Both the position numbers and the translations under genes were made by a program. Below are positions 20,097-46,949 of a DNA stretch of 49,713 nucleotides, piece after piece. Every line of letters starts with the position of its first letter. Within the stretch, counting starts at the first letter, position 1. Below the pieces are notes generated by a model, which saw nothing but the letters and a program-made list of their open reading frames with translations, had not been told where the DNA came from and made no database searches. The stretch lies in the sequence record NC_130088.1; one strand, given 5' to 3'. The stretch comes from a phage.

Positions 20097-20135
20097 AATG
20101 CCCTGGCTTAACGGTCGGGGCATTTGTTTTCTTTT
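20097..20135 (+). terminator. Putative terminator after J (stem AATGCCC/GGGCATT plus T-rich tail)
   Basis: 7-bp stem, 14-nt loop, TGTTTTCTTTTG tail. Confidence 0.35.
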
Positions 20136-20487
20136 GTTCCATGATGTTCACAACTTAATCCGGCGTAAAATTGAAAACGTCTTGATAACAAAAAGAACAA
20201 ATGAAATATCTATATAATAACATACACTTAGAGTTTAATTATTATTATATATATCTATTTGTATTCTTCTTGTTTCTATTGTTCTCTATGGTTTGTGGTT
20301 GTTGTGTGTTTTGTATTGGTTGATGGTTATATATCACATGGTATGTATTTATATATGGTATGCGGCGTAAATGCGTGAACAATGTAACACAAAAACAACA
20401 ATCAGTAAAATCATAAACTTACGATGTGATTTTGTTGTCAGTGCCTACTTTGAACGTATGCAAAACAAAAAGAACACATAAAACATA

Positions 20488-20515
20488 TTGACTACATGAA
20501 ACATTCGCATATAAT
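20488..20515 (+). promoter_or_regulatory. Near-consensus sigma70 promoter TTGACT-16-TATAAT (early promoter A)
   Basis: Hexamers read directly; A-rich UP-like tract upstream; precedes the exonuclease gene. Confidence 0.7.
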
Positions 20516-20543
20516 GCAGACATACCAACGAGAGGATGACCAA

Positions 20544-21599
20544 ATGAGCGATTTTAAAGTTTACACCTTTGACCAGTTAACCAACGGTGAATATCACGAT
20601 CCGAAAGGCTGGGCGGCTGAATACGTTAGCGGTTCAAGCCTGGCAGAAATCTTTGCAAGTTGTCCGGCAGCATGGAAATACAGACCACGCGAGGAAAGCA
20701 AAGCGCTTGTTTTCGGTACGCAGTCACACACAAACTTCCAGAGTAGTGAGCTATTCGCAAAAGAGTACCGCAGAGCGCCAGCGCCGGAAGATTATGAAAA
20801 CCTGATTACGAGCCAGGCAGCATTGGCAGCGAAATTAAAATCTTTTGGCCTGACTGGTACAAGCGGTAAAACGTATCCAGATCTGATTAAGATGATGGTT
20901 GATTGTGGTGAGGATCTAAATGTGCAATGGCTCATTGAAATGATCGCAGAAAGCCAGGCGCGAGCGGATAACGTTGAATTGGTTCCGGCTAAAGATTACG
21001 ACGCTTGCGTTACCATGCGCCGCGTACTGGAAAGCATACCTGAACACAACGCTTGCATGAATAGCCCAACAGCACAACGCGAGCTATCAATTTTCGGCAC
21101 TATAAAAGGCGTGAAAGTCAAAGTAAGGCTTGACCATGTTGATATTTGCAAGGATGTGCTTGCAACGGTGATTTCCGGCTATGACGGTGAAGGGAATCCG
21201 GTTTATGAAACCACGCGATTTGATGAAGCGATTGTGATCACTGATTATAAAACAACGTCAAGCGCTAACCCGTCAGAGTTTGCAAGGCTGGCATTCAATC
21301 ACGGATACTACTTGAAAATGGCATTGCAGCATGACCTATTCAAGAAAGCGTATCCAGAAGAAACGCGCCCCGTAGTAGTCAGATTGCTGGCGCAGGAAAA
21401 GAAAGAGCCTTATTTACCGATTGCATACCGCATGACAGACGAACAATTGAAGATCGGACGTCTGCAATACATGAGCGTTATCAACCAGTTTGCAGAATGC
21501 CAGGCTAATGACGTTTGGCCTTCATATGCAAACGGTGAGCCGGAAATTGACCTGCAAACGCCTGATTGGGTACGCAGACAATACAAAGGTTTTTTATAA
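20544..21599 (+). CDS. Putative recombination exonuclease (PD-(D/E)XK-type)
   Basis: 351 aa; D..D(V) and ITDYKT motifs consistent with a PD-(D/E)XK nuclease; followed by Erf-like and SSB genes. Confidence 0.5.
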   Translation: MSDFKVYTFDQLTNGEYHDPKGWAAEYVSGSSLAEIFASCPAAWKYRPREESKALVFGTQSHTNFQSSELFAKEYRRAPAPEDYENLITSQAALAAKLKSFGLTGTSGKTYPDLIKMMVDCGEDLNVQWLIEMIAESQARADNVELVPAKDYDACVTMRRVLESIPEHNACMNSPTAQRELSIFGTIKGVKVKVRLDHVDICKDVLATVISGYDGEGNPVYETTRFDEAIVITDYKTTSSANPSEFARLAFNHGYYLKMALQHDLFKKAYPEETRPVVVRLLAQEKKEPYLPIAYRMTDEQLKIGRLQYMSVINQFAECQANDVWPSYANGEPEIDLQTPDWVRRQYKGFL

Positions 21600-25701: not shown

Positions 25702-26628
25702 TTATAATAAGTCACTTGCCTTGTAAAGCCTCCGCTCTATTCCATTTTTGAATTTACCGTTAATTGGTAACATTACGTCTAATTCGCGATCATCAGCAGC
25801 AATCAAAGTATCGCGATCATTAGCATGGCACACAACGCGCATTTTGCGATCACCTTTGTAGCGATACGCTACTATTTCAAGATTCGACGCAGAAAAACAA
25901 GCCCACACCTCTTGTCCAGTTGCCAAGTGGATGTGTTGCGCATCAATCCAATCAACGCAAAGGTAAATTGTTTTGTCAGTCTTGCCAGTTACTGCAACAG
26001 AGCCTCGCGTATAATCCTTAGCGTAAAAACTGCTTTGACCTTCCTCATTGACGAAAAGAATATTACACATATCATCGTCCAATTCATCACTATGCACTAG
26101 GTGGCAAGGAATGGCGTGAATATGTTCGCAATATCCGTTGTCGTGAGTTTTTACGCCAACTTGATACGATTCGCCGCCTAATGGATAAAACGCCTCAAAA
26201 ACGCTTAGATTTGTTATTTCCATGCGTTCAGTTTTATCCATAACCTCAACACATTTTTCATGAGTTGCTTGCGATCCGAAATTGTAACCGGAGTCACGTT
26301 TTGCCGCTTTGTTAGCCTTGTTGACAACCTCAACCGGAACCAGGTTTAACCATTCGCCTAGAGTGTCGATTGCTTCACTGTAATTTTCACCACGTATGCG
26401 CATGAATAATCCGATCCCTGAATCATTCCCGCATTGGTTGCAAATGTTGCCGCCGTCGCCTTTCTCGTTGATTTTGTCCGTCCATCTGAAACGGTCTTTA
26501 CCTCCACAATAAGGGCATGGTTGATGCTTTCCGTTAAAGGTTAATTGAGGAATATCACAAAGTTTCATCAATGCCGCTTGCCACATTCCGCGCATCTTTG
26601 GGATCACTTCTTCTTTCTGGTAATGCAT
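25702..26628 (-). CDS. DNA primase (zinc-ribbon plus TOPRIM-like)
   Basis: CPYCGG..C..C zinc ribbon at N-terminus, acidic DxD-like motifs later; GGAGG SD. Confidence 0.6.
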   Translation of the reverse strand: MHYQKEEVIPKMRGMWQAALMKLCDIPQLTFNGKHQPCPYCGGKDRFRWTDKINEKGDGGNICNQCGNDSGIGLFMRIRGENYSEAIDTLGEWLNLVPVEVVNKANKAAKRDSGYNFGSQATHEKCVEVMDKTERMEITNLSVFEAFYPLGGESYQVGVKTHDNGYCEHIHAIPCHLVHSDELDDDMCNILFVNEEGQSSFYAKDYTRGSVAVTGKTDKTIYLCVDWIDAQHIHLATGQEVWACFSASNLEIVAYRYKGDRKMRVVCHANDRDTLIAADDRELDVMLPINGKFKNGIERRLYKASDLL

Positions 26629-27307: not shown

Positions 27308-27349
27308 TAGCACTTTTTGCTAAAACTATTGAGTAAGTTTGTGTATGAT
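27308..27349 (+). promoter_or_regulatory. Conserved 19-bp box plus TATGAT (class-2 unit) upstream of helicase
   Basis: TAGCACTTTTTGCTAAAAC, 21-nt gap, TATGAT. Confidence 0.5.
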
Positions 27350-27384
27350 ATGGTGCAAATGGCATTTAGTCAAAAGGATAAGTA

Positions 27385-34793: not shown

Positions 34794-36374
34794 TTACCCC
34801 ATTAACGCCGGATTGACATAAACAAATTTACCCACGCTGCAAACATAATTCTTTTCTTCAAGCATTGGCAATAATTGTTCCTCAATTCGTTTCATCACGC
34901 CTGATTGACCTGTAAACGGCTTAACCTTACGCGCACTTTCATAGATAGCTCTTGCATTGGTAACGCCTTTATTTTGACGTGAGATCTTAATGATGATTTC
35001 AATTAACTTGCTCATTTCGGCATCATCGCCAGCGTGACCGGAAGCATTCGCGGCGTTGATATATGTTTTGCTTAATTCGCTGAACATCACCAAAGCCTCT
35101 TGCATTGTCTCAACTTCAATTTCTCGCGACTTTTGCGGCGTACCGTTTGGATTAAACCAATTGCGGATCGTGTGCAATACTGACGCAATGCGGATCACTT
35201 GCTTATCCATTTTACCCAAAGCACCACGCAACATTGTATGTGAATATTTCCCGCCGTCTGCTAAATCTGGCTCTAATTGCTGGCGAGCAATATTAAGAAC
35301 ACGCATTGCAGAACGTGACGGCTTCAATACCACATTTTGTTCAGTCATGATGTTATGAATCAACTGGAAATATTGCGCCTTTAATTCTTTATCAACTGGC
35401 GTGTAATCAAGATCACCATTTTCATCAATAAATACACGCTCTCCTAACATTGTTTTTTCACGTACAAGCAAGAAACGTTCACTAACACCAATACCACGCG
35501 CCCCTGCATCCATTATCCCTTTTATCGTTTCATCCTGGGCAATTACGCTCATGCAGCCCAACGCAACAAAACTCATATTATTTTCAGAGTTGGCGCGAGC
35601 TATTGAAACGTGTCCGGCGTCCCATGCTTTTAGAACCAATTCGCTGTTAGTCTTGCGATCACTGTTAGCGTAAGTCAATCCGAGTAAGCTGTTGATGCTT
35701 GTTGCTTCATCTGAAATGACAGCAAAGTTACCCTGGCGATTGTTGATCTTTGCTAAACCTTCCGGCGTGGTGTCTGATACCGGAAAAACGATATCGCACA
35801 TTTTTTCTAACTTTTCCTCTAATTCCTCCTTTTCCTCAAACAACGCCGCTAACTCAGTGCCGGAACGCTCAGCTTTCAATTCCTTTTCAACGCCTTTTAA
35901 TTTCGCTGCGATCTTCTTTCGCTCTTTCTTGCGTTGTTCGTTGATTCGCTCAACTTCACAGACCATTGGCGCAATAGCCAGGCTGTTGATTGCTGATTTA
36001 CCAGTTGATGGCGGCTGACTGGTTACAACATAAAGAGCCGTTGGTTGTTCAGTGTCGTGGTACTCAACTTGGAAGCGTCCAACCATAGCGGCGGAAACGC
36101 AACCTATGAAATGCATATAGGCCGATGATTCAGGAAATTGAACAGATTGCGCAATGCTACGTGACAGTTTACCCACAACATCAACATCATTACCCAAAGA
36201 GATCACAGGATAACGGTCATTAGCGCCGTTGATATCCTTCACAGGTTCCCAAAAGCTGGACGATTGGCGGTAGCCGTTCGACTGAATAGCAACGCGAAGC
36301 GGCGATGTTCCCTGCGATTCTGCAATGGCTATAACTTGTTGAGGTGTCAATTTGTTGGTGTCAAAGTCAAACAT
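34794..36374 (-). CDS. Large hypothetical protein (526 aa) with P-loop-like PPSTGKS segment
   Basis: AAGGAG SD; first gene after class-2 unit at 36402-36444; function not recognised. Confidence 0.5.
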   Translation of the reverse strand: MFDFDTNKLTPQQVIAIAESQGTSPLRVAIQSNGYRQSSSFWEPVKDINGANDRYPVISLGNDVDVVGKLSRSIAQSVQFPESSAYMHFIGCVSAAMVGRFQVEYHDTEQPTALYVVTSQPPSTGKSAINSLAIAPMVCEVERINEQRKKERKKIAAKLKGVEKELKAERSGTELAALFEEKEELEEKLEKMCDIVFPVSDTTPEGLAKINNRQGNFAVISDEATSINSLLGLTYANSDRKTNSELVLKAWDAGHVSIARANSENNMSFVALGCMSVIAQDETIKGIMDAGARGIGVSERFLLVREKTMLGERVFIDENGDLDYTPVDKELKAQYFQLIHNIMTEQNVVLKPSRSAMRVLNIARQQLEPDLADGGKYSHTMLRGALGKMDKQVIRIASVLHTIRNWFNPNGTPQKSREIEVETMQEALVMFSELSKTYINAANASGHAGDDAEMSKLIEIIIKISRQNKGVTNARAIYESARKVKPFTGQSGVMKRIEEQLLPMLEEKNYVCSVGKFVYVNPALMG

Positions 36375-40095: not shown

Positions 40096-40530
40096 TTACA
40101 GCCATTCGCCGGAAACAATGAAATCAGTGAAATCGTCATGATCCAAAATGCTGTGATAGCCAGTGCAATAATCATTTTTAACCATGTTACCACGCAAACG
40201 CACATAATCATCCTTTCGATCCGTAATCCAACGAATAAAGCGAGCGTTACGTTGTGGTATCGTTCCGGCGTAAGCCTCTTTGAATCCAATGTGTGCGATG
40301 AATGCCACAAAGCGGATTTGCAAGCCTGGATTGTCTTTCTTTGCCTCGTTAACCAGGTCGCGGAAGTTTTCACGCGTTGGCTTTACCGGAACCAATTCGC
40401 CTAACTCGATCATGCGGTTGAAGTCTGAAATGCTGGAATATGATTGCATAAACAGCCCATCGCTACCAAACATCACAACTCCGTTTTCGATGAAGTAAGT
40501 TTGTCCGTTGTATTTGTTTGTGTATTTCAT
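40096..40530 (-). CDS. Hypothetical protein
   Basis: 144 aa from internal ATG with GAGG SD. Confidence 0.45.
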   Translation of the reverse strand: MKYTNKYNGQTYFIENGVVMFGSDGLFMQSYSSISDFNRMIELGELVPVKPTRENFRDLVNEAKKDNPGLQIRFVAFIAHIGFKEAYAGTIPQRNARFIRWITDRKDDYVRLRGNMVKNDYCTGYHSILDHDDFTDFIVSGEWL

Positions 40531-40561
40531 CGTGAATTCCTCAGTTAGTTTCGATGAAGTA

Positions 40562-40604
40562 ATCATAGCAATTCGTGACTGATTGGTTTTAACAAAAAGT
40601 GCTA
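40562..40604 (-). promoter_or_regulatory. Conserved 19-bp box plus TATGAT (class-2 unit, minus strand), first unit of the leftward operon
   Basis: Box/gap/-10, CATCGAAAC leader. Confidence 0.5.
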
Positions 40605-40613
40605 TTCATGCAG

Positions 40614-40643
40614 TAGACCGATTGGTCTAGACCGTTTGGTCTA
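40614..40643. promoter_or_regulatory. Operator-like composite palindrome TAGACC-gatt-GGTCTAGACC-gttt-GGTCTA
   Basis: Three GGTCTA half-sites in alternating orientation; a fourth GGTCTA at about 41086. Confidence 0.4.
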
Positions 40644-40700
40644 ATGAACGCATCGTTTTGTGTATCGAACGCATTCATGATCCTGTTACGTGATCGTTAT

Positions 40701-40781
40701 ATGATCAGATGATGATTGATGTGTGAGATTTTGTGATTGAAATTGATTTGATTTGATTAGATTTGAGTAGTGAGTGAGTAG
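40701..40781. repeat. Iteron-like array of short direct repeats (GATT / TGATTGA / GTGAGT units) in AT-rich DNA
   Basis: Direct reading; no ORF. Confidence 0.5.
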
Positions 40782-41247
40782 AAATAATCACACCTTGCCG
40801 ATCAGTGAAAACTTTTCCCGCAAAACATCACTCCAGGCTACGCGCTGTTATCTTCCGTTCATGGGTGTTCACAAATCTATCCGGCGTAGTTCTCCGACGG
40901 TTCTATGTGTTAGCCACACAAAAAGAACAAAATAAAACTCTATATAATAATAATTAAAACAGTAAGTTATCTATATATATGTATTTATTTGTTTCTATAC
41001 TGTTTCTAATGTTCCATATGGTTAGTGGTGGGTGATATATTGTTGATGGTGGTATTTGGTTAATATTTAGCCTATTGCGCCTGGTCTAGTGGTGGATTGA
41101 GAAAAATATATTTATATATAGGAATCCGCGAAAATTCATGAACGTATGAACAGCCAAAGAACGCGTTTTCAATTTCAAGTAAAACATTCACTTACGCTGA
41201 AAATTTGTTCCACTATAGGTATGGAACGTAAGCACACAAAAAACTAC

Positions 41248-41276
41248 TTGACGAGAACAAATGGCGGCGATAATAT
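41248..41276 (+). promoter_or_regulatory. Sigma70-like promoter TTGACG-17-TAATAT (early promoter B)
   Basis: Hexamers read directly; leader and SD paralogous to promoter A. Confidence 0.65.
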
Positions 41277-41312
41277 GCCACAACGAACTAACCAACAGGA
41301 GGATAACCAATC

Positions 41313-41762
41313 ATGGCAACTACCAAAGAGTTTTGCGACAGCTTGCGTGAACTGGCGAAGAAGTTAGCAAGCGGAGAGCTTGATAATTACATCATTGCCG
41401 ATGCTCTTATCGAGGACAATCTCGACGAGCAAGACCGGAAGAAGGTCAACGCCTCATACATTCGCACGATCATGAATCGCGTCCCTGACGTGAAGGAGAT
41501 CGGAACGGTTTCAATTACTCGCACTGATCCGGTTGAGGAAGCGCCAGGGTTTAAGGTGGCAATCAACCGCGAGGCAAAGCGACAGGTATTCACAAAAAAT
41601 GATATTCCTGCACTGGAAAAGCGGATCGGTGAGCGAATCGCCAAGCGACTGCTAAACACAATGCCAAATATCACGGATCTGGAAGGTGAACAACTCCAGG
41701 GCGCGGCAATAGGAATTAAACGTTATCAGGATCTGATTAAGTCATTTGCAACGGGGGAATAA
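41313..41762 (+). CDS. Hypothetical protein
   Basis: 149 aa, SD AGGAGG. Confidence 0.5.
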   Translation: MATTKEFCDSLRELAKKLASGELDNYIIADALIEDNLDEQDRKKVNASYIRTIMNRVPDVKEIGTVSITRTDPVEEAPGFKVAINREAKRQVFTKNDIPALEKRIGERIAKRLLNTMPNITDLEGEQLQGAAIGIKRYQDLIKSFATGE

Positions 41763-42224: not shown

Positions 42225-42247
42225 CGGATTACATCCTGATTGGTAAA

Positions 42248-46774: not shown

Positions 46775-46949
46775 ATTTATTGGTTTTGTGGCATTGCTTA
46801 TGTGCGGAATATTGCTTACTGACAATGACACTTGGCAAAGCGCTGTTGGCGGTTTACTTATTTTTCTTGCTGGTGGCATGGTTGGCAGTGATGACGCAGC
46901 AAACAAGAATAAACTTTCCGATCATTTACGCAGAGAGACAAAACGATGA
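46767..46949 (+). CDS. Small membrane protein
   Basis: 60 aa with two hydrophobic segments. Confidence 0.35.
   Translation: MIRFIGFVALLMCGILLTDNDTWQSAVGGLLIFLAGGMVGSDDAANKNKLSDHLRRETKR

Follow-up and report, generated by a model that had tools for sequence, protein, structure and literature searches.

Region B, a non-coding element located at positions 40846-41312 of the 49,713-nucleotide (nt) phage genome that was analyzed in this study (the whole stretch is hereafter called the window), is by alignment one member of an ancient pair of paralogous non-coding modules, each about 420-470 nt long. We tentatively read it, at a probability of roughly 0.4, as an early promoter adjoined by an unwinding module of replication-origin-like type, which would serve either as an origin or as one of a pair of cooperating cis regions. 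The genome is that of Citrobacter phage vB_CfrD_Devorator (OL539461.1), a virulent T1-like siphovirus of the Drexlerviridae, Tempevirinae, genus Tlsvirus, and positions 40500-41400 (901 nt) are 100% identical to OL539461.1. Together with its partner, region A (20125-20545), region B makes up the best candidates so far for replication origins of the T1-like phage family. From the homology and conservation of the two regions, their promoter consensus, duplex instability, motif clustering and GATC avoidance and the presence of a helicase and a primase, we infer that the element may be bound by proteins, melted and used in replication.

A preliminary description had placed an early control region at 40858-41312, between divergent operons, and had claimed that it contains the same conserved blocks as region A. 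The location was borne out, as the non-coding gap (40567-41312) is flanked by gp57 on the minus strand (40096-40530/40566) and gp58 on the plus strand (41313-41762). The shared blocks were also recovered: in formal alignments, conservation between A and B was detected with z = 14-27 against shuffles. MAFFT aligned the two regions as colinear blocks in the same order, and 305 of the 491 columns of the global alignment were identical (62%; z = 14.4 against 40-nt block shuffles). The Smith-Waterman score was 97, whereas dinucleotide shuffles scored 22.4 +/- 2.8 (z = 26.7) and block shuffles, which kept the local composition, 25.8 +/- 4.8 (z = 14.8). The top BLAST segment was 116 nt long with 76.7% identity (E = 1e-15) and was followed by weaker colinear segments. 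The right limit at 41312, which is set by the gp58 start codon, stood, but the left limit had to be moved, as the shared element begins 12 nt further left, at 40846. The 280 nt to its left (40567-40845) were present in B only and had no counterpart in A. Region A itself is located between a tail-fibre terminator (20097-20124) and a RecE-like exonuclease gene (ATG at 20544). The features of region B and its partner are as follows.

40846..40888, + strand: block 1, left half-site array TGTTATCTTCCGTTCATGGGTGTTCACAAATCTATCCGGCGTA, with GTTCA, TGTTCAC(A) (TGTTCACA) and a CCGGCGTA box
40918..40950, + strand: block 2, A-rich box ACAAAAAGAACAAAATAAAAC, then TCTATATAATAA; contains the 16-mer AAAACTCTATATAATA
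40919..41018, no strand: candidate DNA-unwinding core, the least stable 100 bp of the 49.7-kb genome
40951..41025, + strand: block 3, AT-rich, with a degenerate IHF-like site AACAGTAAGTTA and T-rich TGTTTCTA / TGTTC repeats
41026..41106, + strand: G+T-rich, C-poor stretch with three TGGTGG, variable in sequence and length
41107..41165, + strand: block 5, right half-site array, with TATATTTATATATAGG, a CCGCGAAAAT box, tandem ATGAACG / ATGAACA 8 nt apart, and GAAC
41179..41213, + strand: blocks 6-7, second IHF-like site AAACATTCACTTA, then ATTTGTTCC
41233..41276, + strand: block 8, A-rich upstream box and predicted sigma-70 promoter (TTGACG at 41248-41253, 17 nt, TAATAT at 41271-41276)
41290..41315, + strand: conserved leader ACCAAC..AGGAGG and gp58 ATG; Shine-Dalgarno at 41297-41302; gp58 is a DUF7174 protein
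20125..20545, + strand: region A, paralogous partner, with blocks 1-9 in the same order as B and the promoter upstream of recE/recT/ssb

The copies of A and B used for the multiple alignment were from Tlsvirus, Hanrivervirus, Changchunvirus, Henuseptimavirus and one unclassified phage (15 Tempevirinae copies; 18 copies in the promoter scan). The alignment revealed one element of nine ordered blocks at both positions. The A copies grouped together across genera, apart from the B copies, and the A-to-B distance within one phage was about equal to the A-to-B distance between phages. Therefore, the duplication predates the genera and both copies were retained, and the alignment shows no sign of concerted evolution between them. 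Both modules were fixed at the same two places in Tempevirinae, i.e., beside pac, where transcription diverges, and ahead of recE-recT-ssb, and were found in diverged form in phage T1, which belongs to the seven classical T phages. T1 (Tunavirinae) had, at the corresponding positions, non-coding regions of 527 and ~700 nt with the same layout, which were no longer alignable with those of Devorator, except for an exact copy of the 16-mer AAAACTCTATATAATA in T1 region A. The full-length B allele was limited to about eight phages, including Devorator, Stevie, U136B, ElisaCorrea, Supreme284 and Sazh with identities of 98-99% and TLS with 77%. Region A had 104 matching records, of which 47 were more than 90% identical and 53 had a coverage of at least 80%. 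No match to the element was found outside phages in 5,426 E. coli genomes or 72,556 plasmids, and the IMG/VR scans returned only isolates already known. An evolution study of U136B reported no mutations in this region.

The left border of the element was a sharp mosaic boundary (1363-2060 in Brooksby). The identity between Brooksby and Devorator was ~99% up to 40844 and fell to ~55% exactly at block 1, to be regained only at the ribosome-binding site (GGAGGATAACCAATCATG), after which Brooksby has a different first gene. Judged by Brooksby, the element is exchanged like a cassette whose left edge is sharply defined. In many other Tlsvirus phages, homology was also lost at 40845/40846.

The right-hand ~70 nt of region B are predicted with high confidence to be a host sigma-70 early promoter and its leader. 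The hexamers were near TTGACA / TATAAT with a spacer in the 16-18 nt range of sigma-70 promoters, from which a transcription start near 41283 would be expected. The region A promoter (TTGACT-16-TATAAT at 20488-20515) matched 11 of the 12 hexamer positions. In a position-weight scan, a promoter of the form TTGAC(T/A/G)-16-17 nt-TAnAAT, situated 30-40 nt before the ribosome-binding site, was top-scoring in 14 of the 18 copies; the exceptions were W011D_A, Henu7_B and GS166_A, which had no such site, and Tls_B, in which it was tied with another site. The same scan of the 18 copies found no further conserved promoter on either strand in the other ~300 nt, including the AT-rich core. Thus, the term early control region of the preliminary description holds in part: a sigma-70 promoter of host type, conserved and corresponding to P01 of phage TLS, was found, but this promoter and its upstream elements explain only the right-hand 70-170 nt, and an origin-like or nucleoprotein module fits the features of the rest at least equally.

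The promoters themselves are already known as TLS predictions, since three intergenic sigma-70 promoters, P01, P51 and P57, were predicted for that phage (German et al. 2024, PMC11447400). P01 (ttgacgagaacaaacggcg..gataat) is the counterpart of the Devorator promoter at 41248-41276, P51 that of the region A promoter at 20488-20515, and P57, which serves the regulator gene, that of 27344-27372 on the minus strand. The P57 counterpart, TTGACTAAATGCCATTTGCACCATATCAT, had no large upstream element. It drives the gene of a helix-turn-helix (HTH) regulator and overlaps the helicase leader, and its extended -35, TTGACTAAA(C/T)GC, recurs in the region A promoters of T1 and of other genera. In the TLS paper (PMC11447400), promoter hexamers only are given in the text and in Supplementary Table S1, and the ~350-nt upstream homology between the two loci was not found there. 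No transcriptome for Drexlerviridae phages was found in the literature searched.

The duplex stability of the candidate unwinding core at 40919-41018 was -103.1 kcal/mol and that of 20180-20279 in region A was -103.2 kcal/mol, while the next stretch of the genome had -116.9 kcal/mol. As the genomic mean was -134.9 per 100 bp with a standard deviation (sd) of 6.5, the A and B cores were about 4.9 sd away. At window lengths of 50, 100 and 200 bp alike, these two cores ranked lowest in stability in the genome and thus qualify as AT-rich unwinding elements. In Stevie and T1, the least stable duplex was located at the same two loci, in T1 despite a sequence that is beyond alignment. Moreover, the core is flanked by blocks 1 and 5, whose half-sites are inverted and ~250 nt apart, with block 1 being an imperfect reverse complement of block 5. 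GAACA/TGTTC occurred six times in A and six times in B (P about 1e-3 each), with the orientations in the same order, and GAAC occurred 13 times in B (P = 5e-6). In T1, all four genomic copies of GTGTAACA were in these regions, three in A and one in B (P = 1e-5), and T1 region B contained 6 of the 17 genomic GATTAAC, including three tandem CGATTAACA (P = 2e-7). These tandem 9-mers were the strongest case of direct repeats.

The IHF consensus WATCAANNNNTTR had nine exact matches at two fixed positions in the relatives, where 0.7 would be expected; the exact form of the block 3 site was AATCAATAAGTTA and those of the second site were AATCAATAACTTA and TATCAATCACTTA. The stretch between the core and block 5 kept its G+T-rich, C-poor composition in all copies. 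Within 41026-41095, the top strand has three Chi-like TGGTGG within 70 nt (AGTGGTGG, GATGGTGG, AGTGGTGG), and the sole true Chi of the genome (GCTGGTGG), at 46869, is in the same orientation as these motifs. Finally, GATC was absent from all 15 Tempevirinae copies, with 1.0-1.6 expected per copy. The whole Devorator genome contains 287 GATC, about 1.5 times the expectation from its composition, and encodes its own Dam methylase. A possible DnaA box, TTAGCCACA at 40909, was dismissed, being present only in the B copies of Devorator and TLS.

Four proteins encoded by Devorator are relevant to replication: a primase, a superfamily-2 helicase, the HTH regulator and a DUF3987 protein. The two that the proposed module would need are encoded at the following positions.

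34794..36374, - strand: DUF3987 / superfamily-6 MCM-like helicase with a C-terminal winged helix, candidate for loading at, or recognising, the elements
25702..26628, - strand: primase with zinc ribbon and Toprim-type domains, homologous to P4 alpha residues 28-262

A tblastn search with P4 alpha matched the primase over P4 alpha residues 28-262 only (E = 5e-12). The structure model of the DUF3987 protein had a predicted local distance difference test (pLDDT) score of 88.9, and Foldseek matched it to MCM2-7 subunits (E = 3.5e-5, probability 1.0). At its C-terminus, residues ~450-520 formed a winged helix of the order helix-strand-helix-helix-strand-strand, and a distinct PHROG without assigned function was additionally matched by the last 86 residues. 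The model is in agreement with the literature, in which DUF3987 proteins are placed among the replicative helicases of superfamily 6 and carry a winged helix at the C-terminus (PMC4889955); helicase activity has been proven for one of them, which partners a primase (PMC11724360). PDB sequence searches with the helicase and the HTH regulator gave no matches.

Judged by its conservation, the predicted sigma-70 promoter would with high confidence fire once the DNA enters the cell and drive the rightward accessory operon. If region B functions as an origin-like module, the inverted GAACA / TGTTC(AC) arrays in blocks 1 and 5, which bracket the most easily melted DNA and the strand-asymmetric G+T stretch, would be bound by a recognition protein, possibly a phage protein such as the MCM-like helicase through its winged helix or an early DNA-binding protein, and bending by IHF at the two sites would help. 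Outward transcription, which would start at the sigma-70 promoter to the right and, in the majority of relatives, also at a leftward promoter to the left, would introduce negative supercoils and so aid opening of the core, at which the phage helicase and the P4-alpha-like primase could then load and start DNA synthesis. The lack of GATC may keep SeqA from sequestering the site and thereby permit repeated firing. An origin primed by an R-loop was considered unlikely, because the rightward RNA would be U-rich and no conserved promoter is found upstream of the core. It is rather doubtful that A and B are cooperating cis replication regions in the manner of P4 ori and crr, in which the MCM-like helicase would use its winged helix to recognise the inverted GAACA/TGTTCAC arrays.

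The proposed plan resembles several known systems in part. In the P4 record, 'ori type 1 repeats', TGTTCACC or TGTTCACA, occur as tandem copies spaced 9-11 nt apart, in either orientation, within ori and crr, which are separate cis regions. Devorator has a primase homologous to the primase part of P4 alpha, and TGTTCACA is found once in block 1 of A and once in block 1 of B, with GTGAACA once in block 5 of A. Three of the 10 genomic P4-type heptamers were within 1.8% of the genome, and there were no arrays of identical octamers. Different from P4, each Devorator array has only one or two degenerate sites, the origin-binding domain (Pox_D5 C-terminal, P4 alpha residues 670-768) has no detectable Devorator homolog, and the helicase belongs to DUF3987/superfamily 6 rather than to the D5-type helicase region of P4 alpha (Pfam D5_N, DUF5906). 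We take the resemblance to P4 as a lead, not as membership. Bacillus phage SPP1, a pac-type siphovirus, reportedly has two homologous distant origins, oriL and oriR, which are said to contain initiator-binding repeats and an AT-rich segment, the repeats being bound by G38P and one origin being inside its gene. The two distant homologous regions of Devorator are similar to oriL and oriR, with the difference that the SPP1 repeats have a known initiator.

In iteron-plus-DUE origins (those with a DNA-unwinding element), such as lambda ori, SaPI ori and those of plasmids, an AT-rich unwinding segment is located beside or between arrays of protein-binding repeats, together with IHF sites. The plan of the Devorator element is the same, but its repeats are far shorter than the classical iterons of 17-22 bp and no initiator gene is adjacent. 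Transcriptional activation of origins, as by lambda pR and at oriC by gidA, involves a nearby promoter that transcribes away from the unwinding segment, as the predicted promoter of region B would. In promoter-primed origins, such as T4 oriF/oriG and the T7 primary origin, the promoter transcribes into the unwinding element, whereas the only conserved promoter of Devorator is downstream of the core and points away from it. IHF also stimulates early promoters, i.e., lambda pL and Mu Pe. Similar to these, region B has an IHF-type site ~90 nt upstream of an early promoter and A-rich DNA further up; however, this model covers at most ~170 nt of the Devorator element, in which the IHF consensus is imperfect.

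Several results weigh against an origin-like module. In a control with P4, the known ori was not among the least stable stretches, so that low stability is an unreliable predictor of origins. Iterons, i.e., at least three direct repeats of ~17-22 bp, were not found in the element, only clusters of 5-8-nt half-sites in both orientations. These repeat units are degenerate and differ between phages and between A and B of one phage; for instance, A of KarlJaspers has GGAACA/AGAACA and its B has GTCAAC twice. Such short units, varying between A and B and among phages, are awkward for a single specific initiator. The complementarity of blocks 1 and 5 showed no excess within the same copy (9.7, vs. 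8.8 between copies) and no covariation, which indicates that their inverted repeat is a shared motif array and not a stem. Neither A nor B of Devorator contains an exact IHF consensus, as both sites are one or two mismatches off. Moreover, no homolog of the P4 alpha origin-binding domain was detected and no protein of the window had a Pfam Pox_D5 match; hence, the resemblance to TGTTCAC may be due to chance. Three further observations suit transcription control better: the A-rich box of block 2 recurs at the UP-element position (-40 to -60), just upstream of the -35 hexamer, in the region A promoter; the T1 region B promoter is bracketed in the manner of operators by GTGTAACA and TGTTACA; and in Brooksby the B element, an allele of ~55% identity, was swapped along with the first gene between flanks of 99% identity, as would be expected of a promoter-plus-gene cassette.

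The main alternative, which we hold to be somewhat unlikely, is that the whole ~450 nt is purely a transcriptional upstream control region of an early promoter for host RNA polymerase. The A-rich boxes would then be UP-like, the IHF sites would bend the DNA, and the GAACA-type arrays would bind a phage early/middle regulator or host H-NS / Fis, so that the promoter is boosted at first and later shut off, with region A doing likewise for the recE operon. The only conserved promoter is at the right end and is among the three predicted in TLS, an IHF-like site is ~90 nt upstream of the predicted start, and in most genera both elements are located between divergent transcription units, all of which are consistent with such a role. 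However, the third sigma-70 promoter, that of the regulator gene (27344-27372), has no such element, and the most conserved and least stable part is 240-360 nt upstream of the start, which is too distant for UP-type contacts. Neither AA/TT periodicity at 10-11 bp nor phasing of A-tracts was detected, as would be indicative of curved DNA. The instability at both loci even in T1, the strand-asymmetric variable stretch and the complete lack of GATC would also be unexpected for an ordinary upstream region. The transcriptional and the origin-like roles are not exclusive, because initiators often also regulate adjacent promoters.

The remaining explanations each address part of the element. An improbable one is a recombination or end-protection element, in which the G+T stretch with Chi-like TGGTGG favours pairing by RecA/RecT or attenuates RecBCD and thus promotes concatemers from terminally redundant ends. 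Three TGGTGG were found in 65 nt of B, where 0.17 would be expected, the top strand of every copy is rich in G+T and poor in C, region A is just upstream of recE, recT and ssb, and region B is in the first ~600 nt past the assigned pac end and would thus be part of the terminal redundancy. However, none of the motifs is a full Chi (GCTGGTGG), region A of Devorator has no TGGTGG, and the conserved blocks 1, 2, 5 and 6 are left unexplained. A non-coding RNA or long regulatory leader is very improbable. Such an RNA would suit a long, conserved, non-coding region whose strand asymmetry would give a U+G-rich RNA rightward and an A+C-rich one leftward, but no conserved promoter was found upstream of or within the core on either strand and the region contains no terminator. 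Rfam had no credible match in either region, RNAalifold gave -2.1 and -0.9 kcal/mol for the two strands of the 15 copies, and the folding z-scores of single sequences were +0.22 and -0.32. Least probable of all is that the element is a packaging signal, i.e., the part of pac that the small terminase recognises. The pac of the TLS authors is within ~120 nt of the left edge of the element, but the same element is present in region A while a single pac series was reported, and the GATT stretch at 40700-40795, which is B-only and kept at the B loci of other genera, is a better candidate.

The 2024 re-annotation of TLS found no origin and no origin-type repeats (PMC11447400), and no origin was found in the SU57 paper either. 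Similarly, the literature searched contained no report of a replication origin for T1 or its relatives, no origin mapping for Drexlerviridae, and no description of the two-copy upstream element, its family-wide conservation, its extreme instability or its GATC avoidance. The paired modules, with the weakest duplex of the genome beside host-type promoters, in a phage that encodes both an MCM-like helicase and a primase of its own, make this gap directly testable. Were A and B indeed a cooperating pair recognised by the winged helix, they would give the T1 family its first defined origin and would be the first case among bacterial viruses in which an MCM-like helicase serves an origin, and GATC avoidance would be a device to escape sequestration by SeqA. 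Even if purely transcriptional, the modules would show how early promoters are built in a large family of phages relevant as therapeutics and contaminants. In either case, 40845/40846 would be a precise recombination boundary for the exchange of early-gene cassettes.

Besides the shared blocks, one ORF (open reading frame) and three B-only features were identified in or next to region B.

41146..41367, + strand: spurious ORF of 73 amino acids, with its ATG inside the second ATGAAC half-site
40545..40608, - strand: leftward operon start signal, outside the element shared by A and B, with a 22-nt family repeat at 40585-40606 (AAATAGCACTTTTTGTTAAAAC), a -10-like TATGAT and the gp57 leader
40604..40653, no strand: palindrome TAGACCnnTTGGTCTA in two overlapping copies, B only, identical in Brooksby
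40700..40795, + strand: C-free stretch of GATT/GATTTGA repeats, B only

The ORF had already been regarded as spurious in the preliminary description, and our results agree: it runs across the promoter and the ribosome-binding site into the start of gp58 and has no counterpart in the copies of TLS and Brooksby. A small protein encoded in region B was therefore rejected, as the other short ORFs were not conserved either. The TAGACCnnTTGGTCTA palindromes, which adjoin the leftward repeat-promoter, resemble an operator to which a dimeric protein would bind. In GenBank, the records of TLS and U136B start at the equivalent of 40726, where the TLS authors placed pac on the basis of restriction mapping and its likeness to P22 pac (PMC11447400). 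Repeats of GATT similar to those of 40700-40795 were also found left of block 1 at the B loci of Henu7, aalborv and Henu8. The 40700-40795 stretch is likely the packaging start or recognition site of the small terminase. The pac end of T1 contains GATGTGATTGTTGC twice.

The 22-nt repeat at 40585-40606 is annotated as a repeat_region in Stevie and belongs to the direct-repeat family of TLS. Members of this 21-22-nt family (AAATAGCACnnnTTGnTAAAAC) were found at 20 sites in the window, for instance at 42247, 42987, 43621, 45206, 46326 and 47698 on the plus strand and at 40605, 40095, 39276, 37125, 36445 and 34281 on the minus strand. Most copies have a -10-like hexamer (TATAGT, CATAAT or TATAAT) at a fixed distance, ~22 nt past TTGnTA. 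Most also have a hairpin of 5-13 bp whose stem varies in sequence while its complementarity is retained; the -10-like box is inside this hairpin in some copies and after it in others. The role of this repeat was left as a question by the TLS authors (PMC11447400). Its features suggest an activator-dependent promoter or a signal at the RNA level, such as nut or a processing site. A sigma-54 reading of the 21-nt repeats was rejected by eye, as the spacing is 2 nt too short.

The gene order of Devorator was similar to that of Stevie and TLS. The genes from terminase to tail occupy 0-20 kb and are followed by recE/recT/ssb, a leftward block with tail fibre, primase and regulator genes, and then the genes from helicase to lysis. 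A leftward block of small genes extends over 34.0-40.5 kb, and small accessory genes run rightward from 41.3 kb round to the terminase. Finally, at 20218-20219, in block 2 of region A, the window has one A more (TATAATAACAT) than OL539461.1 (TATAATACAT), and TLS and GS166 are also without that A. This additional A accounts for the window being 49713 nt long and OL539461.1 49712 nt.

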